This document shows positions 359 to 45,398 of a stretch of DNA of 64,000 nt, piece after piece. The stretch is taken from assembly GCA_964360025.1 (NCBI GenBank), contig CAYHUD010000001.1, forward strand, positions 3,922-67,921. The letters run 5' to 3'. A program made the translations under genes and the position numbers. The notes under the pieces were generated by a model, which saw nothing but the letters and a program-made list of their open reading frames with translations, was not told where the DNA came from and made no database searches. Position 1 is the first letter of the stretch. Each line of letters starts with the position of its first letter. Origin of the DNA: an uncultured Candidatus Saccharibacteria bacterium (GTDB lineage: Bacteria; Patescibacteriota; Minisyncoccia; UBA6257; JAUSGH01).

Positions 359-946
359 CTACTTGTGGCACCTCCGGCATGGTGGCCACGACTTGATCGT
401 GACCGTCCCACTGCCGGACACCCGAAATCTAGGCACCGCCTCGGTGAACTCTAGATCGGGCAGCCGTCCGTCCACCGCGAGAGGATTTTCCATCCCCTCA
501 AAGTGGACGGCGACTATGCTTCCCGGTGGAATGCAAACCCGGAAGCACTCCCCGGGGAACTGGAACCAGTCGCCCGGACCATCCGGACCGACTGGGAGCG
601 ATCCCAGCGCGATCGTTTCCGATCGCACCGCGGGGCACGAGTGCCCCACCTGCGGCGCCGCGCCGACTTTTTTCTCTCCGCCTCCCCAGGAGACGGAGAG
701 AATAGCGAGCGAGATGAGCGCCAGCCCCACGATGAGGCCGACACTCGCCTGTTTGCGTGTGATCCAGCGTCCCGCCGGACCACCACGGAGATCCCGAGCG
801 GGGCTTTCGCCACCACCCGCTCCGCCGCCAGATCCTCCGCTCCGCCCCTGCGGAGCCGGTTGTTGCTGGCCACCACCCTGGTGGCCCTGACCCTGACCCG
901 CATCCCCGCTCTGCTGCTGGGAACGCGGTCCGTGTTCGCGAGCCAT
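359..946 (-). CDS. hypothetical Gly/Gln-rich protein with one TM helix; GC-rich ORF
   Basis: ATG preceded by GAAGGAGG RBS on minus strand, terminator hairpin downstream; TM segment ASVGLIVGLALISLAILSV; mirror ORFs on + strand considered artefacts of high GC. Confidence 0.55.
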   Translation of the reverse strand: MAREHGPRSQQQSGDAGQGQGHQGGGQQQPAPQGRSGGSGGGAGGGESPARDLRGGPAGRWITRKQASVGLIVGLALISLAILSVSWGGGEKKVGAAPQVGHSCPAVRSETIALGSLPVGPDGPGDWFQFPGECFRVCIPPGSIVAVHFEGMENPLAVDGRLPDLEFTEAVPRFRVSGSGTVTIKSWPPCRRCHK

Positions 947-958
947 GAAACCTCCTTC

Positions 959-996
959 TGTCCACTATCTCGTCCCATCGGACGAGATAGTGGACA
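959..996. repeat. family B 38-bp palindrome (tgtccactatctcgtcccatcggacgagatagtggaca)
   Basis: near-perfect inverted repeat; copies at 2841, 3495, 26754, 42775, variant 42893. Confidence 0.8.
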
Positions 997-1005
997 CCTG
1001 AAACT

Positions 1006-2058
1006 CTAGAAGATTCTAAACAAGCCACCTTCGGGTATCCCACGAACATCGTGGGTTGTAACCACCCGAGTGGCCTGTCCTACGCTCACTTGAGCATCAA
1101 TGAGGGCATCGCCAGACGACATACCTTGTATCTTACGCTTGGCGATAATTACGTCTTTTTCCTCTTCGCGCGACTCAACGGCTTTCATTTCGCCGTCGGC
1201 GCGCTGTTTCGCCCCCAACGCTTCCTGCGTCGTTTTGCTGAAGGCGATAGAAGCAAGTGAGAACTCTTCCACATCTACGCCATACGTAGTCTCGATGCGG
1301 GAGCGGTCGGCTACATTTTCTTTCTCACGGGCGAGGAGTAACCGAATCCTCGCCGTATTTTTTTCGTAGAAGGCGAGCCGCTTTCTCGGCTTGATCTCAT
1401 TGTGATCAAGCCCGACTACCGGCGGCTCCGCCGGTAGTCCCCCATTTAGAACACCCTCGGGGTCCAGATGGGGGGCGCGAGAGAGTCGGAGCGTGCATTC
1501 AACGAGAAGGAGAATTGCCTCTCGTTTCTCAATGAATGCGCCTCCCCCGTGAGCCCCAGCGATAATCCCCAACGACTCCTTGATGGAGTCGCGGAGACCA
1601 CCGCAAATGGAAACCGCCGGAACCTGCTTGAACTTGCGGATAAGCGCAAGATCAAACCGATACTGCGCGCTCCCCTTGACCCGAATCCCGAGGCGGTCCT
1701 TTGATAAGACCTCTACCTCGAGATTTGCGTCCACAAGCTCGTTTTTCACGAGCTCGTCCACGTTTTGGAAGAATGGCACGATGAAGTGCCACCCCTCCTC
1801 GAGAAGTGGGGGCGGGTTGCCGTCATCCGGCACCCGTTTCCCCCAAGTGAGAACCTCCGTGTAGTGGTCCTTAGGGACCACGACCACCGAGGCGATGACG
1901 ATGATGGCGATGAGGGTCAGAGCCCCTACCACCGCCCACAACGCCACGCTCCCCGAGAGGAGCACAACGCTGTAAAAGGCGACCAGCGCCCACTTTTCGT
2001 ATTTTTCCATGACATACCTTTCTGGGCTTTTTGAGCCCTTGTTTAAGTATCTTGGCAA
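1006..2058 (-). CDS. SPFH/band-7 (stomatin/HflC-like) membrane protein; true start probably internal Met (MEKYEKW..., ~2010)
   Basis: N-terminal TM helix followed by SPFH-like region and C-terminal charged coiled-coil tail. Confidence 0.65.
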   Translation of the reverse strand: MPRYLNKGSKSPERYVMEKYEKWALVAFYSVVLLSGSVALWAVVGALTLIAIIVIASVVVVPKDHYTEVLTWGKRVPDDGNPPPLLEEGWHFIVPFFQNVDELVKNELVDANLEVEVLSKDRLGIRVKGSAQYRFDLALIRKFKQVPAVSICGGLRDSIKESLGIIAGAHGGGAFIEKREAILLLVECTLRLSRAPHLDPEGVLNGGLPAEPPVVGLDHNEIKPRKRLAFYEKNTARIRLLLAREKENVADRSRIETTYGVDVEEFSLASIAFSKTTQEALGAKQRADGEMKAVESREEEKDVIIAKRKIQGMSSGDALIDAQVSVGQATRVVTTHDVRGIPEGGLFRIF

Positions 2059-2112
2059 AGACCAACAATTCTGTTATAATTATACCATTCTAGAACGATA
2101 AAGTCAATAGAA

Positions 2113-2197
2113 GCCCTCGTGGCGGAACTGGCATACGCGCATGGCTTAGGACCATGTCTCGCAAGAGTTAGAGGTTCAAATCCTCTCGAGGGCACCA
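2113..2197 (+). tRNA. tRNA-Leu (anticodon UAG), CCA encoded
   Basis: acceptor GCCCTCG/CGAGGGC, anticodon arm CATGG-CTTAGGA-CCATG, long variable arm, T-arm AGAGG-TTCAAAT-CCTCT. Confidence 0.8.
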
Positions 2198-2291
2198 ATA
2201 CATTGACGTAACAAAATAATATTGTTATATTATTGTCTGTCTTTGCTGTGTGTCGCGGCATAGAAATAGCTCTTTAGGAACAGGAGGTTGT

Positions 2292-2726
2292 ATGAAAAAC
2301 GAGCAAGAAGAAAGTGTTCTCAACAGCGCATATGGTAAAGTGTGGGATAGCCTGGCCATAATAAGACTTTTGAGAAGCAGGCCGTTGGAGCCCAACACCG
2401 ATCTGGGATTCGGCCAAGAGTTCATCTTCGCGACCGAAGATGGGGGGCGCACCATCGCCGGAACAATCATGGGGATGGAGAATACGCCCGACGGACTCCT
2501 GCTCTACGTTTCTGTTCCTCGCTTTCGCGGCAGAAAACTCATCGGACTGATACGCTCCAACGGAAAGTGGGGCGCGTATGTGGACGAGGACCCCTTCGAT
2601 ATGGATACGGCAAATCTCGCGATGGCGGTCGCGCGAGGGGAAATGTCCTCAGAGCAGGCAGATAATCTTATCAAAGCCGTGATCGCATCGCGGTTCGAGG
2701 GTGGTTACCTAAGGCTACTTAAGTAA
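2292..2726 (+). CDS. hypothetical protein
   Basis: AGGAGG RBS 5 nt upstream of ATG 2292 (six-frame ORF 2250-2726). Confidence 0.55.
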   Translation: MKNEQEESVLNSAYGKVWDSLAIIRLLRSRPLEPNTDLGFGQEFIFATEDGGRTIAGTIMGMENTPDGLLLYVSVPRFRGRKLIGLIRSNGKWGAYVDEDPFDMDTANLAMAVARGEMSSEQADNLIKAVIASRFEGGYLRLLK

Positions 2727-2840
2727 CTCTCTCTTCTACCTCTGTCACATAGCGGTCGGGAAACACTCCCGGGCCGCTTTTCTTTTTCCTGGAGAATACA
2801 GAATACTACCACCATACACAGACCTCAATCCCTCCCGCTT

Positions 2841-2878
2841 TGTCCACTATCTCGTCCCATGGGACGAGATAGTGGACA
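2841..2878. repeat. family B 38-bp perfect palindrome
   Basis: tgtccactatctcgtcccatgggacgagatagtggaca; flanks gene 2916-3491 on the 5' side. Confidence 0.85.
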
Positions 2879-2915
2879 AATATCAAAAAAATAATAAGCT
2901 GTGTAATATATCAAT

Positions 2916-3491
2916 ATGCGTGGAGATTTAATTCTATTCGTATTAAAAACGCTTCAAGTTGGCGCCCTATCCGTTACTGCGATCGCAGATTTACTGGATG
3001 AACACAGCATTCGCAATACCAATGCCTCTTTTTGGGGGCATCCTATAAAATCACCTCCGAAGCGCAGGATGATTTTTGAAGATAAAATAAATTCTCTCTC
3101 GCGGCAAAGGATGTTGGCTAAAATGGTATCAAAATTAAAATCTGAGGGGCTGGTGGTAAAAGACAAACAAGATATATGTGGGATAACAAAAAACGGCATA
3201 GTAAAATTGGGAAAATTATTAAATCTTAGAAGTCAGACGCCGAATTATGTCACCGAACAATCAAACGAGGTTAAAATAATCACCTTTGATATTCCGGAAT
3301 CAAAAAGGTCATCCCGTGTTTGGTTAAGACAAGCTTTAAAAAATCTCCGATTTAACTTTTTACAAAAAAGCGTCTGGGTGGGCAAAACTATAATCCCCCA
3401 CGAGTTCTTAAGCGATCTCCGCCAAAGAGAAATCTTTGATTTTGTAGAAATACTCGCAGTCACTAAAAAAGGCACGCTCCGTCAAATATAA
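2916..3491 (+). CDS. winged-helix DNA-binding protein with C-terminal Cas2/VapD-like domain (AT-rich gene)
   Basis: N-terminal wHTH-like segment; C-terminal 'KIITFDIPESKRSSRVWLRQALKNLRFNFLQKSVWVGK' matches Cas2 signature (YDI...KRR...L...G.R.Q.SVF); no cas1 or CRISPR array nearby. Confidence 0.5.
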   Translation: MRGDLILFVLKTLQVGALSVTAIADLLDEHSIRNTNASFWGHPIKSPPKRRMIFEDKINSLSRQRMLAKMVSKLKSEGLVVKDKQDICGITKNGIVKLGKLLNLRSQTPNYVTEQSNEVKIITFDIPESKRSSRVWLRQALKNLRFNFLQKSVWVGKTIIPHEFLSDLRQREIFDFVEILAVTKKGTLRQI

Positions 3492-3494
3492 AAA

Positions 3495-3531
3495 TCCCCT
3501 ATCTCGTCCCATGGGACGAGATGGGGGACAA
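3495..3531. repeat. family B palindrome (tcccctatctcgtcccatgggacgagatgggggaca)
   Basis: flanks gene 2916-3491 on the 3' side, 4 nt after stop. Confidence 0.8.
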
Positions 3532-3696
3532 GATAATACCCGAGAGAAGTAGCGCCCGGATAAAATAGTGCGGCAAGCCCCGAGTTTTAGCCCGTGACTT
3601 GCAACCAGGTTGGATCAGAATCACAATTTTGCTTTTTTATAATAAATGCTATTATAGCCGTTAGGTCATTGAAAAACCGCTTTGCGGGGGTGAAAT

Positions 3697-4476: not shown

Positions 4477-4483
4477 ACCATGA

Positions 4484-4510
4484 AACCCTGCCCAGGCGGG
4501 GTGTTTTTTT
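4484..4510 (+). terminator. rho-independent terminator (ccctgcccaggcggggtgttttttt)
   Basis: GC hairpin + T7. Confidence 0.6.
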
Positions 4511-4526
4511 ATATTAAAGTAAGATT

Positions 4527-4559
4527 GTGTCCCTGCGGGACATCTCCCGAAGGGATGAC
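4527..4559 (+). repeat. family C twin-hairpin motif copy 2 (gtgtccctgcgggacatctcccgaagggatgac)
   Basis: same orientation and context (just after a terminator) as copies 1 and 3. Confidence 0.6.
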
Positions 4560-4562
4560 CAC

Positions 4563-4683
4563 GCTTCGCTCTCAATGACAACAGATGGAGATTCTTCGCG
4601 CAACGCTCAGAATGACAGAAAAACCGCTCTAGCGACGGCGGCCATCGGCTCGCCAAAGCTCTAGCGACGGCGGCCGTGAAATG
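4563..4683. repeat. family A fragment (gagattcttcgcgcaacgctcagaatgaca) plus 2x direct repeat 'ctctagcgacggcggcc'; overlaps 3' end of recombinase gene
   Basis: direct sequence match to family A modules; 17-bp exact duplication 40 bp apart. Confidence 0.6.
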
Positions 4684-5620
4684 TCTTATGAATATCCTTC
4701 AGTTCCTTATTAGTGATATGAGTATAGACCTGCGTTGTCGCAATATTGCTATGCCCCAAAAGCTCCTGTACAGCACGAAGGTCGGCGCCGTTCATCAGCA
4801 AATCGGTCGCGAAAAGATGGCGTAAACTGTGCGGCGTGAGCCGCTTTCCCGCTATCCCCGCCTTCGCCCCATAAAAATGAATAAGCCGCTGAATGGTGCG
4901 CGGCACGATGCGCCCAATCATTTTGGGATTCTTTGCTTTAGTAAAACTAACGAATAAAGCCTCGTCAGCATCGGTCCTCTTGTCCAAATAATTTTTAATA
5001 CTCGTCTTGGCTTTATCCGACAAAAATACAATGCGCAGCTTGTCGCCTTTGCCGCGGATGGTGAGCTCGCCTTTTTGTAAATCAAGATAACGATTCAGCT
5101 TGCAAAGCTCCGAAATACGAAGGCCTGTGGAAAAAAGTGTTTCTAGAATCGCCCTGTCGCGCAGGGTTTTAACTTCATCTCCCGCAGGCGCGGCTAAGAG
5201 ACGCACCAGCTCGGGGTATTCAATCACCTCAATTTGTCGCGAGACGGCCTTGGGAAGCTCTATTTTGTCGGGCGATAAAACATCGTAATCACGTTTGGTG
5301 AGATACTTCAAAAAATTACGGATGGCGATGACATAGTAGCTCTGCGTGGACTTTTTGAGCGGTTCGCCACTGCGCGTGCTTTCACGCGCTAAACTGATGC
5401 GAAAAGCCCGCACCGCCTCGGGAGTAATATCGGCTATGTTCTTAACTCCGGAACTACTGACGAATCGTGTTAAATACCGCTCGTAGTTTTCCCGCGTCTT
5501 CGGTGAGCGATTTTTTTCCACCTCCAAATAATCCAAATATTCTTTTAAAAGTTTGGCGATCACACTTCTATTATATAATATTTTGCGACAGTTGCCGCCT
5601 TGCTTTGCGACAAAGACCAT
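4661..5620 (-). CDS. xerD: tyrosine site-specific recombinase, XerC/XerD family
   Basis: C-terminal catalytic signature ...HSLRHLFATDLL...LLGHSNIATTQVYTHI; start may be internal GTG. Confidence 0.85.
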   Translation of the reverse strand: MVFVAKQGGNCRKILYNRSVIAKLLKEYLDYLEVEKNRSPKTRENYERYLTRFVSSSGVKNIADITPEAVRAFRISLARESTRSGEPLKKSTQSYYVIAIRNFLKYLTKRDYDVLSPDKIELPKAVSRQIEVIEYPELVRLLAAPAGDEVKTLRDRAILETLFSTGLRISELCKLNRYLDLQKGELTIRGKGDKLRIVFLSDKAKTSIKNYLDKRTDADEALFVSFTKAKNPKMIGRIVPRTIQRLIHFYGAKAGIAGKRLTPHSLRHLFATDLLMNGADLRAVQELLGHSNIATTQVYTHITNKELKDIHKTFHGRRR

Positions 5621-5643
5621 CTATACTCTATACTTAAATTACT

Positions 5644-7479
5644 ATGGACTCTCTATACAAAAATATATTTTGGGCAGTGATAACATTGATAGTTGTCGCG
5701 GTAACGTTTTCATTTCTTGTCGGCGACGGAGAAACGACAAAAAATCTTTCCATCAACCAACTGGTCGCGGAAATAAACGCGGGGAAGGTCGCTAAAATCG
5801 CCGTCTCCGGAAACAATCTGGAAATTGAGCTTAAAGATGGGGTGAAGGCAGTGGCTAGAAAAGAAAATGAGGCGGGGCTTACCGAAACATTAAAAAACTT
5901 TGGGCTGGACAGCCGACTTTTAGAAAATGTGGACATCCAAATCAAAGACGAGTCGGGTCTGCGCTTCTGGCTGGGCATTATCATCCCGACAGTTTTGCCG
6001 ATTATCGTCATCCTCATCATCTTCTGGTCTGTTTTCCGCCAAGCGAAAAGCGGGGCATCGCAGGCATTTACTTTCGGACGCGCCAACATCCGTCTTTTCT
6101 CGTCATATAAAAATCGTGTTTCATTTAAGGATGTCGCGGGACTGAAGGAAGCCAAACAGGAACTGGAGGAAGTGGTGGATTTCCTCCGCAATCCGAAAAA
6201 GTTTATGGATATCGGGGCGCGCATACCACGCGGAGTGTTACTTATGGGCGCGCCGGGCACGGGGAAGACGCTTCTGGCTCGCGCCGTAGCAGGGGAAAGC
6301 GGCGTGCCTTTTTTTCATATTTCGGCTTCGGAGTTTGTGGAAATGTTCGTAGGCGTGGGAGCGGCGAGAACCAGAGACGCTTTTGAAACGGCAAAAAAAG
6401 CCGCGCCCTCTATACTTTTCGTTGACGAGATAGACGCCGTGGGCCGCGAGCGCGGATCCGGTATAGGCGGCGGACATGACGAAAGAGAGCAGACTTTAAA
6501 CCAGATCCTTGTGGAGATGGACGGCTTTGAACGCGATACGCGCGTCATCGTCCTTGCCGCAACGAACCGCCCCGATGTTCTGGATCCGGCATTGCTCCGT
6601 CCCGGACGCTTTGACAGGAGAGTAGTGCTTGATCTCCCCGATATTACCGACAGGGAAGCCATACTTAAAATACACGCGCTCAATAAACCGCTAGATAAAG
6701 AAGTTGATCTGCGTAAGATCGCCGTACGCACTCCGGGATTTTCCGGCGCCGATTTAGCCAATCTTGTAAACGAGGCGGCAATCTCAACCGCGAGAAAAAA
6801 TAAAAGAATCATCGGCCAAAACGAGCTGTATAATTCTATAGAAAAAGTTTTGCTTGGTCCGGAACGGCGGAACAGAGTCATTTCACAGAAAGAACGCGAC
6901 ATCACCGCCTACCATGAAGCGGGACACGCCCTTGCCGCCGCCAGTTTAAAAAATTCCGATCCGGTGCATAAAGTTTCTATTGTGAGCAGGGGACAGGCGG
7001 GGGGCTATACGCTGAAATTGCCTCTGGAAGAAACCCGCCTGCATACCCGTTCGCAATTTTTAACCGACCTCGCGATGATGCTCGGCGGCTATGCGGCGGA
7101 AGAAAAAGTTTTCGGCGAGATGTCCACTGGCGCATCAAGCGATCTGCAAAAAGCTTCGGAGCTCGCCCGCCGGCTCGTAACCCAATACGGCATGAGCGAC
7201 AAACTGGGCCCGATGACTTTCGGCAAGACACAGGAGATGATATTTCTGGGACGCGAAATGACAACCGAAAAAAATTATTCTGAAGACGTCGCCAAGGCGA
7301 TTGACGGAGAGGTCCAAAAATTTATCGCCAACGCCCATAAAACAGCGCAGAAGATTATCCAGACGCGGCGCAAAGTGCTGGATGTGATTGCTAAAGTGCT
7401 TCTGGAAAAAGAAACGATTGAACAGGACGAATTTGCCGAGCTGATGAAGCAACACAATACGAAGCCGATTATTGCTTAA
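5644..7479 (+). CDS. ftsH: ATP-dependent zinc metalloprotease FtsH
   Basis: N-terminal TM, Walker [21 protein letters not shown] region, zinc motif HEAGHAL. Confidence 0.95.
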
Positions 7480-7563: not shown

Positions 7564-7636
7564 GCGCGTGTAGCTCAACGGTTAGAGCATCGAGCTTATA
7601 CCTCGGGGGTTCATGGTTCGAATCCATGCACGCGCA
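7564..7636 (+). tRNA. tRNA-Ile, apparent anticodon UAU (loop CTTATAC); no CCA encoded
   Basis: cloverleaf: acceptor GCGCGTG/CACGCGC, D GCTC/GAGC, T-arm CATGG-TTCGAAT-CCATG. Confidence 0.65.
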
Positions 7637-7652
7637 CAAAATAGCAGGTTTT

Positions 7653-7724
7653 GCGCGCTTAGCTTAGTGGTAGAGCGACCCGTTTACACCGGGTAGGTCG
7701 GGGGTCCGATTCCCTCAGCGCGCA
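7653..7724 (+). tRNA. tRNA-Val (anticodon UAC)
   Basis: acceptor GCGCGCT/AGCGCGC, anticodon arm ACCCG-TTTACAC-CGGGT; slightly atypical T-loop. Confidence 0.65.
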
Positions 7725-7804
7725 CAAATAGAATTTGTGCCGCGAAGGAATCGGATCGGGAAAAGGGATTTTAGGCTAGTAAAATAGTGACTTGGTCGGG
7801 GATA

Positions 7805-7832
7805 TTGACAAATCCTGTGTATTTGCTATAAT
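7805..7832 (+). promoter_or_regulatory. sigma70-type promoter TTGACA-N16-TATAAT
   Basis: consensus hexamers read directly; upstream of ORF 7891. Confidence 0.5.
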
Positions 7833-7890: not shown

Positions 7891-8112
7891 ATGCCCAGCC
7901 AACTCAAGCGCAAGTTCACGACCGACGAGGGGCCGCACGCGCGGTTCCTCGAGTCCTGCCGGCACGGTGCCGATGTGGCGCCGCCGCCGCAGAAACCGTG
8001 TTCCCGCAACGCGCGGGAGCACAACTTCGGGGACTTCCACTCCGCGCGGCAAATCGCCGCCGCGGAGCGGATGGAGCAAGAAGACGAAGCCAATCAGGGC
8101 CTCGTCAACTAG
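7891..8112 (+). CDS. small hypothetical protein (73 aa), GC-rich
   Basis: GGAGGG RBS 8 nt upstream; high GC3. Confidence 0.45.
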   Translation: MPSQLKRKFTTDEGPHARFLESCRHGADVAPPPQKPCSRNAREHNFGDFHSARQIAAAERMEQEDEANQGLVN

Positions 8113-8220
8113 CAGAAGCCGAGGGAGGGGGAGACTCATTCTACTCCCTCCCTCGGCTGGGTGAAAATCTCTGTGGTTGTCGGTTGTTCGGGGAAAAAAC
8201 TCAAGAACAAGGAGAAAGAA

Positions 8221-8430
8221 ATGTCCGCTCCAGCAGCAGCACCGCGAAAGCACCAAGACGCTTTCCGGGTGGCGAACCGCGCCGCCCGCCACGCCCAGTC
8301 GGCAGGACCCAGCGTCCCGCCGGAGGAGAACCTCCCCGTGGGGAACACCGCCACGGAAGAGGCCTTCTATGGCGGTGTCATGCGCGCGATGCGCAACACC
8401 GCCCACGCGCCTGCTCGCGGAGGCGAGTAG
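8221..8430 (+). CDS. small hypothetical protein (~69 aa), GC-rich
   Basis: AAGGAG RBS before ATG 8221 (six-frame ORF 8161-8430). Confidence 0.4.
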   Translation: MSAPAAAPRKHQDAFRVANRAARHAQSAGPSVPPEENLPVGNTATEEAFYGGVMRAMRNTAHAPARGGE

Positions 8431-8522
8431 ACGCACCGCCACCAGGAGGTGGCGGCAACGAGAACTCTCAAACCAAGACCCAGGGGGTCAGAGGTATGAG
8501 AGTTCTTTTTTTATTTAAAGAA

Positions 8523-8692
8523 AGAGAGATTCTTCGCGGGACGCCTGCCTGCCGGCAGGCAGGCTCAGAATGACGAAGGGGTTGTTACCCTCCTGGAATT
8601 AAATTCTGTCATCCTGAGGTTTACCGAAGGATCTCAAGTGAGATTCTTCGCGGGACGCCTGCCTGCCGGCAGGCAGGCTCAGAATGACGATC
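8523..8692. repeat. family A repeat array 1 (2 long units gagattcttcgcgggacgcctgcctgccggcaggcaggctcagaatgacga + 1 mirror unit tgtcatcctgag..gaaggatctc)
   Basis: exact 51-bp unit at 8525-8575 and 8639-8690. Confidence 0.85.
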
Positions 8693-9105: not shown

Positions 9106-9726
9106 ATGAAAGTCTTGATCGGGCTCATCGGGAAACCGCGCGTCGGCAAAGGAACTGTTGCCGGCATCATCACAAAACTTCTGGAGGAGAAAGGGATTAC
9201 AAGTAAAAACATGCGGTTCTCTGACCCGTTGAATGACATTCTCAAAATCCTCAATATTCCAAACTCCCGCACCAATCTGCAGAATCTTGCTCTCGTCTTA
9301 AGAAATGGGATCAGCGAAGATGTGCTTGCGCGTGCAATGGAACACAAAATCCTTCAAACAAAGGGGGATGTCATCATCCTGGATGGCATCCGGTGGATAC
9401 CGGATTTCGCGATGATAAAAAAGCTGGGCGGCATCACAATTTACATCAAGGCCAGTTTAGAAACCGCTTTCCGACGGACCCTGAGAAGTCAAGAAAAGGC
9501 AGGGGAATCCGAAACTACGCTGGATCAATTCCTCGCCCAACAAAAGGCAGAATCCGAAAAGTATATTGAGGCCATCGGCGAACATGCCGATTTCGTTTTG
9601 GAAAACGACGAGGACGACGATGCCTCTCCCTCGGCGCCAAAAGTTCTGACGCCGAGAGTGGAGATGATTATCGGGAATCTCGTAATCCCGATCCTGGAAA
9701 TCCCAACGGAGGAGGGGAAAGAATGA
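9106..9726 (+). CDS. P-loop NTPase, putative nucleotide/nucleoside kinase-like
   Basis: GGAGG RBS; P-loop GLIGKPRVGKGT near N-terminus; acidic C-terminal tail. Confidence 0.55.
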   Translation: MKVLIGLIGKPRVGKGTVAGIITKLLEEKGITSKNMRFSDPLNDILKILNIPNSRTNLQNLALVLRNGISEDVLARAMEHKILQTKGDVIILDGIRWIPDFAMIKKLGGITIYIKASLETAFRRTLRSQEKAGESETTLDQFLAQQKAESEKYIEAIGEHADFVLENDEDDDASPSAPKVLTPRVEMIIGNLVIPILEIPTEEGKE

Positions 9727-10199
9727 AAAGAATGTCCGTGATCGTTTTCGTTTCGCTGATTGCGATTACCCTCACTTACGTTTGGACGGGAAGTGTCGCC
9801 GCGCAGAACAAGCCGGTGGACGATCACCACAAGGCGAAGATTTTCAACTTCACGAATGTGAACGGCAGCGGCCGCGACAAGGCCGAGGCGGAAGTGAATG
9901 CGTGGCTTGCCGACAAGAACAACAAGGCGGCGGAGCCGATGGTGCTCTTCTGTTACAACGCACCGGCAGGAACCCTGCTTGTCACCGTCATCTGGAAGAA
10001 CGACGCGGTGACAAAGCCGTATCAGGTCAGGTTTTTTCCCATCACGGCCACAAACAGAGACAGCAAGAAAGAAAAGAACAAGAAGAAGAAGTCCCTGGAG
10101 GAAGAACTGAACGAGTTTTTCGCCGGAGTGACCCTGAAGCGGGTCTGGCAGGAGACCTCCGACGGAGTTGGAATGATCTTCGTCGTTTATCAGAAGTAA
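9723..10199 (+). CDS. secreted hypothetical protein (signal peptide MKRMSVIVFVSLIAITLTYVWTGSVAA)
   Basis: ATGA start/stop overlap with upstream gene; terminator follows. Confidence 0.55.
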   Translation: MKRMSVIVFVSLIAITLTYVWTGSVAAQNKPVDDHHKAKIFNFTNVNGSGRDKAEAEVNAWLADKNNKAAEPMVLFCYNAPAGTLLVTVIWKNDAVTKPYQVRFFPITATNRDSKKEKNKKKKSLEEELNEFFAGVTLKRVWQETSDGVGMIFVVYQK

Positions 10200-10259: not shown

Positions 10260-10990
10260 TGAAAGTAGTTGGTAGTCCATAATTCATAATTCTTGATTCA
10301 TTATTCACTCCCTACCTCCCCCGCTCTCCCCTCCTGCTTGCCGCATTGCCTTATCCGGCAAGATATGGGGCTATAGTTGCCGATTGAAGAGTAGGGAAGC
10401 GGCAATCGGCAAATGTGGCAATTGCCGTGTAAAACAATGTGTTTTACATTTGTTTTACACTAATTTTAGAGCTTTTTAGAAGCCAATCGGTAGATAAAAC
10501 CTACATTATTTGAGTGTTTCGGGGTGTTTTACATAGTGTTTTCCATGGCCTACAAGCTCGGAAGCCGATCGTGCGATGAAACCTACATTATTTGCATTTT
10601 CGTGTTTTGGAGTGTTTGACGTTTTCCTTTTTTTACACACAATGGAAAACGTTAAACATCTTTTACCGGAAAAAAACTTTTTAAATTGCCGATTGAGGCA
10701 CATCAAGACGGCAATTCAATCGGCAAATGCGGCAATTTATGCGACTAATTGCCGCATCATACGGCAAAAAATGGTTGTAGTGTTTGACGTTAAACAAACA
10801 GTTAAAGTATGGCGAGATTGCCACGGGCCGACAACTGTCGGCCCTCGTAATGACAGATCGAGGAAAACGTCAAACATCGTTTTACACAGGAATTGGACAT
10901 GGATCATGAAACACGCATCATGGATCATGTGAGAACATGCGTCCCGTACTCCGTGTTATGTGTTATGTTAAACACACACGATGTTTCACG
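10260..10990. repeat. ~700-bp repeat-dense non-coding region (duplicated ~50-bp 'gccgattga.g...ggcaat.c..tcggcaaatg.ggcaatt' unit; 'aaacctacattatttg' x2; 'gtttgacgtt'/'aacgtcaaac'; 'gtgttttaca' motifs; family E copy at 10817-10855)
   Basis: direct reading; only short spurious ORFs. Confidence 0.6.
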
Positions 10991-10996
10991 TTTTCC

Positions 10997-11365
10997 ATGA
11001 CTAACCAAATTACGGGCAAAATAGGCGAAGATCTGGCGACCGACTATCTAACATCTCGCGGATATAAGCTAATTGAAAAAAACTACCGCCAGAAGTGGGG
11101 TGAGATTGACATAATAGTCAAATCATTGTCTGGTATTCTGGTCTTCGTTGAGGTTAAAACTCTTAACGGTATCCCCGACTCCGGCCTAACTCCCGAGGAT
11201 AACATCACCGCCTTTAAAATGCGGCAACTAAAAAAATGCGCTGAGTTTTACGCTGCAAAACATCCCGAGCTGATTAACGAAAAATCGGGGTGGCGAATTG
11301 ATGTTCTTGCTATAAATATTACCGAGGACTCGCCCGCCGATATCCGCCACTATGAAAATATCTAG
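10997..11365 (+). CDS. yraN: YraN/UPF0102-family endonuclease-like protein
   Basis: GEDLA.DYL...GY.LIEKNYRQKWGEIDII....GILVFVEVK signature; start at MTNQITGK. Confidence 0.7.
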   Translation: MTNQITGKIGEDLATDYLTSRGYKLIEKNYRQKWGEIDIIVKSLSGILVFVEVKTLNGIPDSGLTPEDNITAFKMRQLKKCAEFYAAKHPELINEKSGWRIDVLAINITEDSPADIRHYENI

Positions 11366-20343: not shown

Positions 20344-21129
20344 GTGATCATCGAAAGAGCGGATTTCGTACCACTCAAAGAAGTAAGGAAACTTCTCTGG
20401 GAGAAGTTCGCGGAAAGAGATTTTGAGAATCTCCTCGCCGCGATGAAACGGCACCCGGAGATTATCAAAATCTACGGTCCCGATGGTTATCGTAAGCTAA
20501 ATAAGCTTGCGAATCTCGCCGTGAAAAAACAGATTCAAGTCGGGGAAATCCCGGCCGAGGATCTTGTCTGGCATCTCAATATTATCTTTGGGATGCCAGC
20601 TTCGACGGGGAGGATTATTGGACATAAGCACTCCCATGTCGACCGCGTTCACCTGATGAAACTCATCGGGCGAGCGCGACGCGAGCTCCTCGGTCTGGCC
20701 GAGGAGAGAGACCCCGCCGCTTCGCCGCCACAAATGGCACGGCCGGTGGCGGCGGTCGCCGCTCCATTCCAGCCGACCCAGCTCGTCCATGAAAAGCTGG
20801 GCGTGGTGCGCGTGACGCGTCACGCGTATGAACAGTTCGTGGAGAGATTTTACCAGGAACACAAGAAGTTTCTGGGTGATCTCTCTGACTTCTGGACTGT
20901 CCAGACACGGATGCAATTCGTGTTTGGACACACAGAAGAAGTTAAGCTTTCGCCCGAGGCACGGGTGATAAAGCTCATCATCCACCGGGAGCGGGCAAGC
21001 TTCTGGGACAACAAGGCGTATAACATGCGCTTTGTCGTCGCGGAGACTCCGGATGGTCCGGAGCTCCGCACGGCGGAGATCCCCGAGCCCTGGCGGCCGC
21101 GAAAGCCGCCAACCAGAGCCCGCCGCTAA
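20344..21129 (+). CDS. hypothetical protein (GTG start, AGGAGG RBS)
   Basis: ORF + RBS + downstream terminator. Confidence 0.5.
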   Translation: MIIERADFVPLKEVRKLLWEKFAERDFENLLAAMKRHPEIIKIYGPDGYRKLNKLANLAVKKQIQVGEIPAEDLVWHLNIIFGMPASTGRIIGHKHSHVDRVHLMKLIGRARRELLGLAEERDPAASPPQMARPVAAVAAPFQPTQLVHEKLGVVRVTRHAYEQFVERFYQEHKKFLGDLSDFWTVQTRMQFVFGHTEEVKLSPEARVIKLIIHRERASFWDNKAYNMRFVVAETPDGPELRTAEIPEPWRPRKPPTRARR

Positions 21130-26610: not shown

Positions 26611-26753
26611 CCGGGAAGTAGAAACTCAGCTGATGAAACTAAGCGTGGGCTGAGTTTGCACTTCCTGGTAAAAATTGAGGGGTAAAAAAGCCACGCTGCC
26701 GGCGTGGCTGGGTATCATCCGAGGAAACTACTCTCCGTCTATCTTTATTCAGT

Positions 26754-26791
26754 TGTCCACTATCTCGTCCCATGGGACGAGATAGTGGACA
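26754..26791. repeat. family B 38-bp perfect palindrome
   Basis: tgtccactatctcgtcccatgggacgagatagtggaca. Confidence 0.85.
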
Positions 26792-26868
26792 ATCTACGCG
26801 GTATCAGAGGCGGGAAACTTGCCGATTAACATATAAAAGTGTATCTTATAGACAGCATCGCGCGATAT

Positions 26869-26958
26869 GGAGGCGTGGCCGAGCGGCTTAAGGCAGCATC
26901 CTGCTAAGATGTTGTCCGCGAAAGCGGACCGGAGGTTCGAATCCTCCCGCCTCCGCCA
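26869..26958 (+). tRNA. tRNA-Ser (anticodon GCU), CCA encoded
   Basis: acceptor GGAGGCG/CGCCTCC, anticodon loop CTGCTAA, long variable hairpin GTCCGC-GAAA-GCGGAC, T-loop GGTTCGAATCC. Confidence 0.8.
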
Positions 26959-27020: not shown

Positions 27021-27575
27021 ATGGCTATTAAGTACAAACAAAAACATCCTGAAACTTGTTTAGCAAAATGCCTTATGATTTTGTTAGAAAAGAAAGAGGG
27101 TAAAAAAATCGCTGATAAATATGAGATGGATTTACTCAATTATTCTTTTAGACATGAAAGGGAGAATATAGCTCGCGGTCACCTTGAGAAGGTCATAAAA
27201 GATTTTAGTATTTCTGTTAATTGGTTTGTTGATTCAAAAATATTTTTTGACTTTATTAAGGAAAAAAATATGAAAAAGAAAATAAAACTGGTTAACCAGA
27301 AAGTTAACTTGAAATTTATTGATAAAATTTTAGATAACCCGATTATCGTCTATTTGGATAGATTTTTTCTTTGGGATAAAAGTCACAGTTTGTATTACAA
27401 ATATCATTATCCCCATTTTATAATAATCAATAAAAAGATAGGTAATGATTATGAAATTATTGATCCAGATGACGGTAAAGTAAAAATAATTCCCAACAAA
27501 ACTTTATCAAAGGCTATTATTTCGCTAAGAAATTATTTATGGATCAGTCCACACATTATCAATATTAACCGCTAA
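27021..27575 (+). CDS. papain-like cysteine peptidase, C39-like domain (stand-alone); strongly AT-rich gene
   Basis: Q-x5-C (KQKHPETCLAKC), later HFIII and IIDPDDG resembling C39 Cys/His/Asp arrangement. Confidence 0.5.
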   Translation: MAIKYKQKHPETCLAKCLMILLEKKEGKKIADKYEMDLLNYSFRHERENIARGHLEKVIKDFSISVNWFVDSKIFFDFIKEKNMKKKIKLVNQKVNLKFIDKILDNPIIVYLDRFFLWDKSHSLYYKYHYPHFIIINKKIGNDYEIIDPDDGKVKIIPNKTLSKAIISLRNYLWISPHIININR

Positions 27576-27993: not shown

Positions 27994-28581
27994 ATGGCCG
28001 AGTCATATGTTCTCATGGTGTCTTTGAGGCACCAGATATCCTTGATGCGGGAGCGCATCCGGTGGCATCGCGACCAAAAAGGTGATGACCGCTGCTGGCT
28101 GGATGACTACGAAGTTTGGGCATTGCTACCCGATTCACCGCCCGAGCCCAGAACGCCACCGACCTTTGAAGAGGGAATGCGCCGTTGCCGGGAATTCTGG
28201 ACATATCGCCGCGCCGAATATCCCGATCCCGCGCCGCCAAATGCCGCGCTTGACCGCAATTGTTGGGACGACGACCTTTCGGAAATGTCCGTGGAAGAAT
28301 TGGCCCGAGAGTTCCTTCGCATCGGCGGCGCCATTCGCGCCCATCGTGGTGTGACGGGTCGTCCACGGTATCTCCCCGATGACCGCGCTCTCTACGCCGT
28401 CTTGCCGGAGAAAATTCCGGCCGACTTCCGCCTGCCGCCTAAAGAAGAATTCTTGGGCGAAGCAAAAGCTCCCAATGCCGGATGTCCCGCCTTTTGGCGA
28501 AGCCACTCCCGATGCACCGCGTGCAACCTCCACCAGTGGGGGCCGTGCCGATTGACACCCCGACTTGCTCTAAATCATTAA
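27994..28581 (+). CDS. hypothetical Cys/Trp-rich protein, GC-rich gene (C-terminal CPAFWRSHSRCTACNLHQWGPC)
   Basis: AAGGAGG RBS before ATG 27994; GC3-rich. Confidence 0.5.
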   Translation: MAESYVLMVSLRHQISLMRERIRWHRDQKGDDRCWLDDYEVWALLPDSPPEPRTPPTFEEGMRRCREFWTYRRAEYPDPAPPNAALDRNCWDDDLSEMSVEELAREFLRIGGAIRAHRGVTGRPRYLPDDRALYAVLPEKIPADFRLPPKEEFLGEAKAPNAGCPAFWRSHSRCTACNLHQWGPCRLTPRLALNH

Positions 28582-38056: not shown

Positions 38057-38332
38057 ATGATACCAGGAATGAAGCTGACGGCGGCGGAAGAAGACCAACT
38101 TCTTTGCGCCTTTGCGAGTCTGGGACAGGAACTCGCGGAAAGATGCGAAGAGGAAATACTCCGCGAGTTGGAACAAACGAAAGAGGAGCTGGAGGCACAA
38201 GAAGGTGTCCTCTTCGCGCAAAGGTGCGCGAGCCAGATCATCGAGGGAGTTTTATGCGCGCAAAAGTGCGCGGACGAAATCGTCGAAAAGGCACCCGCGC
38301 CGCGCGGGGAAGCAACTGAACATGGGGTATAG
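38057..38332 (+). CDS. small acidic Cys-containing hypothetical protein (91 aa)
   Basis: AGGAGG RBS; perfect promoter upstream. Confidence 0.5.
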   Translation: MIPGMKLTAAEEDQLLCAFASLGQELAERCEEEILRELEQTKEELEAQEGVLFAQRCASQIIEGVLCAQKCADEIVEKAPAPRGEATEHGV

Positions 38333-42352: not shown

Positions 42353-42361
42353 TTTAAATAG

Positions 42362-42433
42362 TGCCCTCGTGAGGAATCGAACCTCAATCTGCTGGTTCGA
42401 AGCCAGCCATTCTATCCGTTGAACTACGAGGGC
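42362..42433 (-). tRNA. tRNA-Arg (anticodon UCG)
   Basis: rc: acceptor GCCCTCG/CGAGGGC, anticodon arm GCTGG-CTTCGAA-CCAGC. Confidence 0.7.
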
Positions 42434-42671
42434 AAATGAGGAGAATGTGAAAATGTCTTCATTTATATAAACTCCCTATGCCGCACCCGCAAGCTATGCT
42501 TACGAGGGCAATTTTTACTCCTATATTTTACCACATTTATAATTTGTCTCAAAATTCGGTGCGCAATCATCAAATATGCCCAAAATTATATTTTATTTTT
42601 AGATTAAAAGCAATACTTCACAAATAAGCTTTTTTGTATTATTGTTTGGAGGAAAGAAAATAAGATGGCAA

Positions 42672-42742
42672 GCCCCCATAGCTTAGTGGTAAAGCAGTTG
42701 ACTCTTAATCAATTGACCTTGGTTCGATTCCAAGTGGGGGCA
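42672..42742 (+). tRNA. tRNA-Lys (anticodon CUU)
   Basis: acceptor GCCCCCA/TGGGGGC, anticodon loop CTCTTAA, T-arm CTTGG-TTCGATT-CCAAG. Confidence 0.75.
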
Positions 42743-42774
42743 CAAAAATAATTTAGTTTTACGATAAATGATTT

Positions 42775-42812
42775 TGTCCCCTATCTCGTCCCATGGGACG
42801 AGATAGGGGACA
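42775..42812. repeat. family B palindrome (tgtcccctatctcgtcccatgggacgagataggggaca)
   Basis: direct reading. Confidence 0.85.
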
Positions 42813-42892
42813 AAATAAAAAACACCTCGGCTACAAAGACACTCTTAACAGGAGTGGTTTTGTTTTGAACGTCTTTGTTCCTGAATCCGAAA

Positions 42893-42930
42893 TGTCTACT
42901 ATCTCAAACGATCGTTTGAGATAGTAGACA
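42893..42930. repeat. family B variant palindrome with different centre (tgtctactatctcaaacgatcgtttgagatagtagaca)
   Basis: conserved outer arms ACTATCTC/GAGATAGT, centre replaced by aaacgatcgttt. Confidence 0.8.
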
Positions 42931-42988
42931 TTTGAAAATTAAAATTATCTGATGATTGGAACCGGCAAACGGGCTTGCTTTTTGTCTA

Positions 42989-43017
42989 TTGACATTTTGG
43001 GGATATGGTGCTATAAT
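42989..43017 (+). promoter_or_regulatory. sigma70-type promoter TTGACA-N17-TATAAT (distal of two tandem perfect promoters)
   Basis: direct reading. Confidence 0.5.
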
Positions 43018-43153
43018 ATATATAGCTTTATGACAACAGCGGTTGTGCCGCGCTTCTAGGGGAAGCGTAAGAACTGGCAAAAATTGAGTGTACTTTCAAT
43101 ATTCCTCACTTGCCTGCACCTTATCATCCCCTAAAAGCGCGGATTACGGAGTC

Positions 43154-43182
43154 TTGACACATAACCGCGCGTTTGCTATAAT
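43154..43182 (+). promoter_or_regulatory. sigma70-type promoter TTGACA-N17-TATAAT (proximal; ~100-nt leader to ATG 43292)
   Basis: direct reading. Confidence 0.5.
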
Positions 43183-43291
43183 GGGTAAAGTTTAACTAGT
43201 CGTACTTTGAACTATCAATCTTGGGTTTTTACGGGGCGTGCGCTCCGGAATCTAAGATTGTGAACATAGAAGTGGTTTCGAGGGTACAAAG

Positions 43292-44248
43292 ATGAACCAG
43301 CAGGACGAGACCTTTTTCTGGGGTCGCTTCATCAAGCTGGTGAAGGCGGCCTACGAGCACTTCGTCATCTCGATGACCGCCAAGGAGGCGGTCAGCAAGA
43401 TGGCGGACGAGGCCAAGAAGAGCCTCGATGCGGCCTACCGCCTCAGCGATGACGACCCCACGAGAGGGGAAGCCATCGCCGCGGGGCGGGAGCTCCGCTC
43501 CGCCGCATTCTCCGGGAAGGCGGAGGCGGAAAAGAGCCGCGCTCTGGCGCAGAAGTGCCAGAAGGAAGCGGCGAAAGAAATGCAGAGCGTCATCGCGGAC
43601 GCTCTGCACACCGATTCTGCTCTGCAGGACGCGGAGCGGGGGGCTTGCAACGGCGCGCTCGGCACCCTACAGGCGGCGGTGGCGGGGGGTTCGCTCCCGC
43701 CCGGCGGTCTCAAGACCGCAGAGCTCGTGACCCGACAGGCAGGATATCCCCGCCTCGCCGGGAACATCGCGAAGACCATGGCGGTCTTCGCGATGATCGC
43801 CACCAGAGAAAGCGATCTAGCGGCTGTCTTCCCCGGGTGGTCTGCCGGGTATTACCGGGGAGTCAGGGGGCTCCTCGGTGCTCTCCGGGACCTGGACTGG
43901 AAAATCAAGGTCACGGATCAGCGGGTCCAGGACCTGCGTAAGCAGGACCCGCGGGAAGAACTTCTGGCTGCCGAACGGCGGCTGAAGGAGCTCCAGCGGG
44001 CCGCGTCCGTGAAGGATGCGGTGCTCGCGGAGCTCCGGGTCTCCGTCCCGGAGACCTGGTTCGCCGAGGGCCCCCGGAAGCAGGGCGCTTCCGAGGCCTC
44101 CGCCCCGATCCTCCTCCACCCCGCCACGGAGGTCATCCAGATGGAGACCTCGGTGGCGAAGGATGCCGAGCGCGACGCCCGTAAGGGCAAGCGCGACGCC
44201 GAAAAGGCAGCGAAGGCGGCCAAGCGGACCAACGTCCGCGAGGCCTAG
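43292..44248 (+). CDS. hypothetical alpha-helical protein (318 aa), strongly GC-rich gene
   Basis: long ORF with GC3-rich codons; no recognisable motif. Confidence 0.55.
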   Translation: MNQQDETFFWGRFIKLVKAAYEHFVISMTAKEAVSKMADEAKKSLDAAYRLSDDDPTRGEAIAAGRELRSAAFSGKAEAEKSRALAQKCQKEAAKEMQSVIADALHTDSALQDAERGACNGALGTLQAAVAGGSLPPGGLKTAELVTRQAGYPRLAGNIAKTMAVFAMIATRESDLAAVFPGWSAGYYRGVRGLLGALRDLDWKIKVTDQRVQDLRKQDPREELLAAERRLKELQRAASVKDAVLAELRVSVPETWFAEGPRKQGASEASAPILLHPATEVIQMETSVAKDAERDARKGKRDAEKAAKAAKRTNVREA

Positions 44249-44398
44249 CCACCGACCCGTTATTGCGAGGAACTTCTTCAAGGCAATCACTCAGAAAATC
44301 AACGAGATTGCTTTGTCGAGGACTCCTCGCAATGACGGGGAAGGAAACCGCCGACCCGGGCAAGTCCACTCGACGAGCCCGGGGAACCACACCAGTAA

Positions 44399-44456
44399 CG
44401 AGCCCACCCACACACGAACGAAAACGCGTTCTGTGAGTGGGTGGGCTCAATTTTTT
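44399..44456 (+). terminator. rho-independent terminator (gagcccacccacacacgaacgaaaacgcgttctgtgagtgggtgggctc + T6)
   Basis: long hairpin + T-run. Confidence 0.65.
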
Positions 44457-44477
44457 AAGGATACATATTTGGGGATT

Positions 44478-44610
44478 AGAGATCCTTCGCAAAGCTCAGA
44501 ATGACAAAAATTGTCATCCTGAGTGTTGCACGAAGGATCTCGAAAAAGAGATTCTTCGCAAAGCTCAGAATGACAGAGCTCTGCGTTCAGAATGACGAAA
44601 TAAATAATCT
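44478..44610. repeat. family A repeat array 2
   Basis: units agagatccttcgcaaagctcagaatgaca / tgtcatcctgag..gaaggatctc / gagattcttcgcaaagctcagaatgaca / ttcagaatgacga. Confidence 0.8.
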
Positions 44611-44663
44611 TCAAATATGTGCTCTTAAACAACAAAAAATGGCCCCGGTAAAAGAGGTGAGTT

Positions 44664-45398
44664 ATGGACATCAAGGGAATCCTCAACCAGGCGTTGGAAG
44701 TCGCTGACGTGGTCTATGTCGGCGATGATCGTGAAGTTTCGGTTTTCGCTTTTTTGGAGGAACAAAAGCGACAAGTAGGCCCGGCCTACCAGGCCGCAAA
44801 TGATGTGCGTCATCACTCCAAAATCGGAATGGTGGCGCTGAAGGAGAGTAACTACGCCCTGCTCGCCCTGTGCGCTCAGCGCATCGGAGAGAACATGGCC
44901 ACTCTCCGAAGATTGAACCTCCCCGCCGATCTGCTGTGGCAGCATATCGGCGAGGCTGGGCAGGAAGCCGGGGAGTTCATGCTGGTGCGTGAGCTCCACG
45001 AACTTCTCTTCCCCCGAGGCATGGTGCCCTCGGGATCCGAGCCGTTTGAGGGGGGGATGAATATCCCCTCAGCGACCGATCTCTGCCTCGAGCCGCAGGC
45101 GTGGCTCGCGGCATTGATCGACGCCACGAGCGAGCTGGGCAAGCTCGCCGTGGAACGGATGTGCCGCGGGGACATGACCCGCGCACAACATGTGGCGACG
45201 CTCCGGAGAATGCTGGAGATTGCCCGTACGGTGTACGGCTACCTTCAGAAATTTGAAGGGGCGGTTCCCATGATCATCAACAACAGCCGTCGCAGGGGGT
45301 ATGGAAATACCTTCCGCGGCGCGATGTACCGCATCGAGCGGCTGATTGAGAACAACGAGCTCGCCCTGCTCCGGATGGTGCAGGACGACTCCAAGTAA
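44664..45398 (+). CDS. hypothetical protein (244 aa), strongly GC-rich gene
   Basis: GAGGTG RBS; terminator follows. Confidence 0.55.
   Translation: MDIKGILNQALEVADVVYVGDDREVSVFAFLEEQKRQVGPAYQAANDVRHHSKIGMVALKESNYALLALCAQRIGENMATLRRLNLPADLLWQHIGEAGQEAGEFMLVRELHELLFPRGMVPSGSEPFEGGMNIPSATDLCLEPQAWLAALIDATSELGKLAVERMCRGDMTRAQHVATLRRMLEIARTVYGYLQKFEGAVPMIINNSRRRGYGNTFRGAMYRIERLIENNELALLRMVQDDSK

Follow-up and report, generated by a model that had tools for sequence, protein, structure and literature searches.

How did several GC-rich open reading frames (ORFs) come to lie in DNA of lower G+C content? The question is raised by a stretch of 64 kb from an uncultured Candidatus Saccharibacteria bacterium (contig CAYHUD010000001.1), the whole of which is called the window here and which has 48.3% GC overall. 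A first-pass annotation had singled out ORFs of elevated GC with G/C-ending codons and with promoters and terminators of their own, and had proposed a high-GC donor, for example an actinobacterial host. The six ORFs concerned are as follows, GC3 being the G+C content of the third codon position.

359-946, minus strand: ORF A, GC 66.8%, GC3 0.70, GC3 z = 4.0
7891-8112, plus strand: ORF B1, GC 67.1%, GC3 0.86, GC3 z = 5.8
8221-8430, plus strand: ORF B2, GC 70.5%, GC3 0.77, GC3 z = 3.2
27964/27994-28581, plus strand: ORF C, GC 58.7%, GC3 0.62, GC3 z = 1.4
43292-44248, plus strand: ORF D, GC 67.2%, GC3 0.85, GC3 z = 11.3
44664-45398, plus strand: ORF E, GC 59.6%, GC3 0.75, GC3 z = 6.7

We think it rather probable that horizontal transfer brought in A together with a neighbouring SPFH gene, B1 (perhaps with B2), D and E, accessory genes that form small islets; they would derive from one or more higher-GC sources and would occupy repeat-bounded spots beside tRNA genes, behind promoters of host type. 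A horizontal origin is the best reading because synonymous sites, tetranucleotides and amino-acid usage all deviate, because the setting is one of tRNA genes and repeats, and because the nearest relatives do not keep the gene order of the island side: in the RecG-bearing ones the RecG-TsaD-tRNA-synthetase side is conserved and the D/E side is not. A foreign origin is the best explanation for A, B1, D, E and, with reservation, B2, but not for C, which is not deviant.

The 54 other ORFs of the window, used as background, have a mean GC of 47.4% (standard deviation, sd, 4.8) and a mean GC3 of 0.516 (sd 0.073), and the elevated GC of the listed ORFs (58.7-70.5%) is evident against these values. 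In the z-scores the observed GC3 is compared with the value predicted from the protein sequence under the window's own codon usage. By this measure A, B1, B2, D and E have more G/C-ending codons than expected from their proteins (z = 3.2 to 11.3), as had been claimed, but C does not. For C, a total GC of 0.572 is predicted from the protein and 0.592 was observed; its GC is almost wholly due to an Arg/Pro/Ala/Gly-rich protein, and it is no synonymous-site outlier. Tetranucleotide distances, a check proposed together with the ORF list, were normalised for GC before outliers were scored; D/E (z 3-3.5) and A (z 3.1) stand out, but C was not flagged. All six proteins show amino-acid usage of the high-GC type (G+A+R+P 0.30-0.52, F+Y+M+I+N+K 0.11-0.23), the reference values from 19 long window genes being 0.26 ± 0.03 and 0.28 ± 0.02. 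Translational selection is an unlikely cause of the GC3 bias because trigger factor, ClpP, NusA and IF-2, all assumed to be highly expressed, are not GC3-rich (0.47-0.55). No paralogy was detected among the GC-rich ORFs, the sole match being A's own Gly-rich low-complexity stretch. Deviant ORFs also occur beyond those first listed: GC3 is high in the SPFH gene (1006-2058, z = 5.0), in 9723-10199 (z = 6.4) and in 20344-21129 (z = 4.1), and GC is strongly low in 27021-27575 (27% GC, z = -5.3) and 2916-3491 (38% GC, z = -4.1).

The GC-rich ORFs lie at four sites, each with a tRNA gene identified by ARAGORN and Rfam.

2113-2197, plus strand: tRNA-Leu(UAG), 55 nucleotides (nt) from the SPFH/A islet
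1006-2058, minus strand: SPFH/Band 7 membrane protein gene, 55.7% GC (Pfam Band_7 E = 1.3e-10)
7564-7725, plus strand: tRNA-Ile(UAU) and tRNA-Val(UAC) pair, 166 nt upstream of B1
26869-26958, plus strand: tRNA-Ser(GCU), left edge of a mosaic spot with a 27% GC ORF and C
27021-27575, plus strand: very low-GC ORF of 184 amino acids (aa), 27% GC, between tRNA-Ser and C
42672-42743, plus strand: tRNA-Lys(CUU), 549 nt upstream of D

The gaps to the nearest tRNA gene are 55, 166, 1006 and 549 nt for the SPFH/A, B, C and D sites, and if the sites were placed at random, gaps of at most 1006 nt at all four would arise with P = 0.018, in a test devised after the data had been seen. Two kinds of repeats accompany these sites. 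A perfect 40-nt palindrome, TTGTCCACTATCTCGTCCCATGGGACGAGATAGTGGACAA, with A- and T-tracts, occurs in six copies, all in variable regions, and was scored by scan as a bidirectional terminator-like hairpin; no copy was found in IMG/VR, and among the fetched loci it was found only in contigs of the same organism. Its association with variable slots is a by-product of this analysis that can be reused. The second repeat family (GAGATTCTTCGCG...GCTCAGAATGACA, some copies with a CCTGCCGGCAGGCAGG core) forms clusters which, with a small GIY-YIG gene, close islets B and D/E.

958-997, 2840-2879, 3492-3531, 26753-26792, 42774-42813 and 42892-42931: copies of the 40-nt palindrome, the last two (repeat family D2) between tRNA-Lys and D
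4588-4621, 8522-8690, 44456-44606, 45471-45741, 46045-46339 and 50375-50751: clusters of the second repeat family
8522-8690: among these, the cluster GAGATTCTTCGCG...CCTGCCGGCAGGCAGGCTCAGAATGAC (repeat family D1 and related), which closes islet B
44456-44606: repeat cluster between D and E (repeat families D3-D8)
45471-46339: repeat clusters around the GIY-YIG gene, which close the D/E islet ahead of an M23 peptidase gene
45753-46136, minus strand: small GIY-YIG nuclease gene, 37.5% GC (Pfam GIY-YIG E = 2.9e-16)

The window has six perfect TTGACA-N16-18-TATAAT promoters, where 0.03 would be expected by chance, and all have TG before the -10 hexamer. Those of B1 and D (TTGACA-N16/17-TGnTATAAT) account for three of the six; two others precede 20344-21129 and 38057-38332, so that five of the six precede GC-enriched hypothetical ORFs.

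7805-7832, plus strand: perfect extended -10 sigma-70-type promoter of B1, 12/12 matches
42989-43017 and 43154-43182, plus strand: two tandem perfect sigma-70-type promoters of D, 12/12 matches
20247, 34751 (minus strand) and 37958: the remaining perfect promoters

The claim that the ORFs have their own promoters is borne out in part, by those of B1 and D; C has a match of only 9/12. Terminators of their own were likewise borne out in part: one was scored by scan past E (45420-45448), a hairpin with a T-run was read from the sequence past the stop of A (about 309-354) and downstream of D (about 44402-44456), and C is without a scored terminator. Ribosome-binding sites are readable upstream of all six ORFs. 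On the strength of the promoters and ribosome-binding sites, the GC-rich orphan genes are probably expressed.

Homologues were sought by a word-indexed protein search over 5.8 billion cluster representatives, which stand for about 15 billion proteins, and, for D, also by an exhaustive HMMER search over 1.84 billion cluster representatives; the protein collection includes the same Hainich groundwater metagenomes. At the tRNA-Leu site, the word-indexed search found only A itself, and A has no match in Pfam, PHROGs, NCBIfam or PADLOC. The predicted protein has 195 aa; its N-terminus is rich in Gly and Gln, a single membrane helix is predicted, and the C-terminal domain contains Cys. An AAGGAGG ribosome-binding site stands 5 nt ahead of its ATG. 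The SPFH gene lies upstream of A on the same strand, divergent from tRNA-Leu, with an 11/12 promoter match at 2107-2079 on the minus strand, and it probably belongs to the same islet. Its product had no relatives among 50,697 phage genomes (tblastn) or in IMG/VR. As a best guess, A may act together with the SPFH protein as its partner in the membrane. Beyond tRNA-Leu, a low-GC PaaX-like ORF (2916-3491) is bracketed by two copies of the 40-nt palindrome.

At the tRNA-Ile/tRNA-Val site, B1 (73 aa) has a GGAGGG ribosome-binding site and an 11-bp hairpin past its stop at about 8120-8160, and B2 (69 aa) has a visible AAGGAG site. The word-indexed search found no homologues of either.

At the tRNA-Lys site, D encodes an Ala/Glu/Lys-rich protein of 318 aa, which, read by eye, is probably helical. 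No homologue of D was found in either the word-indexed or the exhaustive HMMER search. D failed even to find itself because it is filed in a 90% identity cluster (P0008, P0009) whose representative, on 401 contigs, is a sequence-unrelated protein of 53 aa. E encodes a helical protein of 244 aa without homologues in the word-indexed search. All its weak matches are to one family and one region: residues 131-211 match Translin/TRAX in Pfam (PF01997, E = 0.014, 15.8 bits against a cutoff of 25.9), the PRK14562 models of NCBIfam match at E = 0.0012, and all four sequence matches in the PDB are one TRAX and three translins (E = 0.084 to 1.4). The segment LIDATSELGKLAVERMCRGD of E aligns with FADAVGELRRYALTKLIEGD of Archaeoglobus TRAX. 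However, the scores of E are under every curated threshold, and the Gly and Arg of the Archaeoglobus GEL..R are replaced in E (SEL..K). A single-sequence AlphaFold2 model of E was too poor for a fold test (mean predicted local distance difference test score, pLDDT, 50.8), and with this model in Foldseek against the PDB translin came third (E = 0.19, template-modelling score, TM-score, 0.23), which is not significant. Our best guess is that E may bind nucleic acids as a very distant relative of Translin/TRAX.

Phage and defence databases were also searched. A prophage or prophage remnant was considered and rejected: no PHROGs hallmark or other PHROGs match was found in A-E, tblastn against the 50,697 phage genomes gave no match for D, E or the SPFH protein, and no IMG/VR contig matched A, D, E or the SPFH protein. 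The sole phage links are distant copies of the C family. Beyond the weak matches of E, NCBIfam gave none for A-E, and the PADLOC anti-phage defence models had no match for ten ORFs including A-E.

ORF C, at the tRNA-Ser site, differs from the orphans. It encodes 195 aa from the ATG at 27994, which follows AAGGAGG and is the best start, or 205 aa from 27964. Its family, conserved but without a name, has proteins of about 180 aa in which motifs of Cys, His and Trp are invariant (HRDxxGDDRCWLDD ... ADFRLP ... GCPxFWRSHxxC ... HxWGPC), and the relatives P0001 and P0002 share 54-55% identity with C. Among 185,579 species-representative genomes, relatives were found at 27 loci (L007-L033). At least four are in the candidate phyla radiation (CPR; Uhrbacteria, Magasanikiibacteriota, Saccharibacteria and others); by genome label, DPANN archaea account for three and Methanosarcinales for one; elsewhere they occur in uncultured Gammaproteobacteria and Alphaproteobacteria (one labelled Micavibrio), in Melainabacteria and in one Bacteriovoracaceae genome. 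None of the 27 loci is in Actinobacteria. Distant copies are present in four IMG/VR contigs (L114-L117) and in one phage of 595 kb. Identity to C is flat (49-59%) across bacteria and archaea, and the neighbour-joining tree mixes taxa. Over a range of 0.38 to 0.70, the GC of the family's genes tracks that of the resident genome, which it typically exceeds by about +0.03 to +0.05; the excess of C in this window, +0.10, is at the top of the family range. The GC3 of C is not significantly deviant and the GC of its 27 relatives follows the resident genome, so that C fails the test that the first-pass annotation had itself set. C is therefore a genuine, transfer-prone gene but gives no evidence of a recent donor of high GC.

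Further observations on the family were made. Four Alphaproteobacteria and one unclassified bacterium conserve the order TsaD-GpsA-x-C-acetyl-CoA synthetase, and one copy is fused to an AAA_28 ATPase. An AlphaFold2 model of C built from three sequences was too poor (pLDDT 59.3), and Foldseek with it found nothing significant in the PDB. The family, which spans CPR, DPANN, predatory or small-genome Proteobacteria and huge phages, is the more reusable by-product of this work. The ORF between tRNA-Ser and C, 27021-27575, has a tetranucleotide z of about 5, G+A+R+P of 0.11 and F+Y+M+I+N+K of 0.51, and its sole family match is a weak one to Peptidase_C39 (E = 0.0086); it looks like a second, AT-rich foreign gene in the same slot. 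The spot is thus a mosaic of opposite GC extremes.

Put together, the proposed course of events would be as follows. Four repeat-bounded variable spots beside tRNA genes would receive short accessory genes of foreign composition: A and SPFH at tRNA-Leu, B1/B2 after tRNA-Ile/Val, the low-GC ORF and C after tRNA-Ser, and D/E after tRNA-Lys. The source of the GC-rich genes may have had about 58-68% GC, a rough estimate from general codon-position trends and not a computed value. It would probably have been a mobile element not yet sampled, a phage or some other bacterium of high GC, possibly one of the Patescibacteria; high-GC members of that group exist (Uhrbacteria locus L009 and Patescibacteria locus L024, about 61-62% GC). 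A sequenced cellular host is an unlikely source. The near-total absence of homologues argues against a sampled cellular donor and is consistent with a phage, a lineage that diverges rapidly or a mobile element outside present sampling. The captured genes would not yet have drifted to the resident 48% GC, and would now be transcribed as units of their own from consensus promoters of host type, with ribosome-binding sites to match. If these are recent acquisitions, a streamlined CPR genome keeps small tRNA-side slots for foreign genes of 27% to 70% GC behind strong promoters. The composition of the islets is a weak clue to the GC of the DNA-exchange partner and, without homologues, assigns no host.

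Alien genes that settle at tRNA genes and slowly drift to the resident composition are the classical picture, and atypical-GC islets at tRNA genes are a textbook pattern, unusual here solely in their GC-richness. The spots share with known islets of this kind an atypical base and codon composition, tRNA neighbours, repeat borders, breaks in gene order and accessory genes. They differ in their tiny size (0.6 to 3.6 kb), in being without integrase, att direct repeats and mobility genes, and in inserts that are GC-richer than the resident genome. Foreign and orphan genes are usually AT-richer than their host, a pattern that 27021-27575 fits. Of the marks of an integrase-mediated tRNA island, deviant composition was found for A, B1, B2, D and E but not for C, and tRNA adjacency was found; attL/attR repeats and an internal mobility gene were not. 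Aquifer Patescibacteria match the present case in type of organism and in habitat; a study of them documents genomic islands and horizontal transfer that cover up to 13% of genome length, islands and single transfers being common and donors often not recovered (PMC12455944). In that study, however, each single-gene event needed a donor in the data set, and most of the transfers were between Patescibacteria and concerned genes of annotated function (PMC12455944), whereas no relatives and no recognisable function were found for the islet genes here.

An integron cassette array was also considered. Short ORFs parted by palindromic repeats, a nearby tyrosine recombinase and the two copies bracketing 2916-3491 recall such arrays, but the palindromes are perfect 40-nt hairpins of bidirectional-terminator type and not attC sites. 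The array was rejected: the recombinase (4661-5620, minus strand) faces FtsH and not the ORFs, it resembles XerC/D, and the ORFs have promoters of their own.

Several points weigh against horizontal acquisition. Donor and homologues were not found in these searches, so that composition and context are what point to transfer. The nearest relatives in the metagenome collection are too distant for a presence/absence test: the closest RecG loci reach at most 53% identity, and the comparison was limited to their conserved RecG-TsaD-tRNA-synthetase side. The tRNA-proximity test is post hoc. Inside the islets no integrase, transposase or phage gene was found (Pfam, PHROGs), and no direct repeat of at least 11 nt of the adjacent tRNA 3' end flanks any of them. 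The sole tyrosine recombinase, the XerC/D-like one, 2.4 kb from tRNA-Leu, has host-like GC. The promoters and ribosome-binding sites of the islets are perfectly host-like. Finally, the GC3-high 9723-10199 starts within the last part of an AAA_18 kinase-like gene of normal GC, in a manner suggestive of translational coupling, and 20344-21129 also looks native; GC3 heterogeneity is therefore not limited to obvious insertions. The ORF 9723-10199 encodes 158 aa with an apparent signal peptide at the start, and its GC3 is 0.76, yet GC1 and GC2 are low.

These observations bear on the strongest rival, which we consider unlikely: the ORFs would be native, lineage-specific, fast-evolving genes, whose Gly/Ala/Arg/Pro-rich and partly low-complexity proteins, together with gene-specific or local synonymous GC pressure, would explain the composition without transfer. 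The pressure could come from selection for the structure or stability of mRNAs, where single genes form strongly expressed units, or from GC-biased repair at recombination-prone repeats. Perfect host-type promoters and ribosome-binding sites, the failure to find mobility genes and att repeats, and GC3-high ORFs in native-looking contexts (9723-10199 and 20344-21129) all agree with native genes. So do the zero homologues, expected for rapidly diverging CPR-specific genes, and ORF C, in which amino-acid composition alone lifts GC by about 0.09. Against it, the GC3 excess given the protein reaches z = 11 and tetranucleotides deviate too, the window genes presumed to be highly expressed are not GC3-rich, and the low-GC outliers at the same spots suit mixed foreign origins over one local bias.

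A bolder form of the horizontal reading, which we regard as improbable, would see in the GC-rich orphans a set of recent captures, strongly expressed and used by this ultra-small bacterium where it meets a high-GC partner or the viruses of that partner; they would have come through type IV secretion-like machinery into palindrome-bounded slots beside tRNA genes. If it were true, islet composition would point to the partner host of this bacterium. In a second, separate part of this reading, the C family could mark a gene with a new metal-binding function, shared across domains by host-dependent and predatory microbes (CPR, DPANN, Micavibrio-like bacteria, Bacteriovoracaceae and huge phages). 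A gene run at 51626-62441 holds type IV secretion-like components, along with many large neighbouring ORFs without a family match.

56517-56990: PrgI, type IV secretion-like set
57802-59589: VirB4/TraG-like ATPase, type IV secretion-like set
60718-61341: type IV secretion system (T4SS) pilin, type IV secretion-like set

It is very improbable that the ORFs are not real genes, that is, spurious frames in GC-rich non-coding DNA (pseudogene remnants, structured RNA) or products of a chimeric assembly; the doubt concerns mainly B2. GC-rich DNA is poor in stops, and chance can account for the lengths of B1 (P = 0.18) and B2 (P = 0.27); NCBI is not one of the sources of their proteins, and region A has ORFs of at least 150 aa in five frames. 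Codon-position GC periodicity is very strong in D (p = 5e-22), E (p = 5e-16) and B1 (p = 1e-6), which are coding for this reason; it is weak in A (p = 0.011) and C (p = 0.033) and not significant in B2 (p = 0.059), whose standing as a gene is doubtful because of this value and its chance length at its GC. The reading frames first given are thus correct by this measure, short of significance for B2. The lengths of D, E and A are improbable by chance (P = 0.0003 to 0.011), and ribosome-binding sites are present. A sub-threshold match to the Rfam gyrA RNA motif lies inside D (43725-43815, 33.5 bits, gathering score 45) and is probably a chance GC-rich hairpin. Only tRNAs reach Rfam family thresholds in the window; structured non-coding RNA was rejected on the missing threshold match at the islets and the codon periodicity in D, E and B1.

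Nor are the GC-rich ORFs an assembly artefact. Three replicate assemblies, from metagenomes on 0.1-µm filters from well H52 of the Hainich groundwater observatory, bridge the A, B and C ORFs with normal-GC neighbour genes at 99.6-100% identity and with 3-4x coverage throughout; the junctions are identical in all three, and contig L006 carries identical ORF A junctions. At D/E the contigs extend on the left only as far as the low-GC spacer and on the right only as far as the repeat and GIY-YIG zone. Between replicates the islets agree at 99.9-100% identity, with too few differences for a selection test.

Direct capture from a high-GC cellular host of an episymbiont, such as Actinobacteria, is the least probable account of all: a donor GC of about 58-68% and Ala/Arg/Gly/Pro-rich proteins are compatible with it, as with many high-GC groups, and the type IV secretion-like proteins of the window might mediate DNA exchange, but for A, B1, B2, D and E no homologue was found in any organism beyond A itself, despite a collection that holds the same groundwater metagenomes, in which relatives of a gene recently taken from a sampled cellular host would be expected, and the relatives of C lie outside Actinobacteria. 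In the aquifer survey, moreover, most detectable transfers came from other Patescibacteria, and an Actinomycetota donor was found in 1 of about 130 transfer events (PMC12455944). The actinobacterial host proposed at first therefore receives no support.

The remainder of the window holds further genes. Housekeeping functions are represented by FtsH, NusA, a proton-pumping pyrophosphatase, trigger factor, ClpP, TyrRS and IF-2, and further by D-Ala-D-Ala ligase, a P-type ATPase, a class I tRNA synthetase, TsaD, RecG, UvrD and KsgA. The gene content, together with the 0.1-µm filters on which exact matches of window proteins occur, suggests an ultra-small groundwater member of the CPR (Patescibacteria). 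In total, 11 tRNA genes were identified (ARAGORN, Rfam). One of them, tRNA-Ile(UAU) at 7564-7637, has the UAU anticodon, an uncommon bacterial route for reading AUA codons. One short GC-enriched ORF had escaped the first list; it is wedged between the tRNA synthetase gene and TsaD, on the opposite strand.

38057-38332: small acidic ORF of 91 aa, 55.8% GC, with a perfect promoter, an AAGGAGG ribosome-binding site and a terminator

Two minor observations concern the region around islet B. Replicate assembly R3 (L119) has 19 substitutions in 230 nt of ftsH (6651-6882) and zero in the adjoining islet, which looks like a short recombination tract. Downstream, the non-coding stretch 10260-11000 is the window's strongest tetranucleotide outlier (z = 6.2); it carries iterated short motifs (GTTTTACA, GTTAAACA and CGGCAAT/ATTGCCG) and could be an origin-like or iteron-like region.

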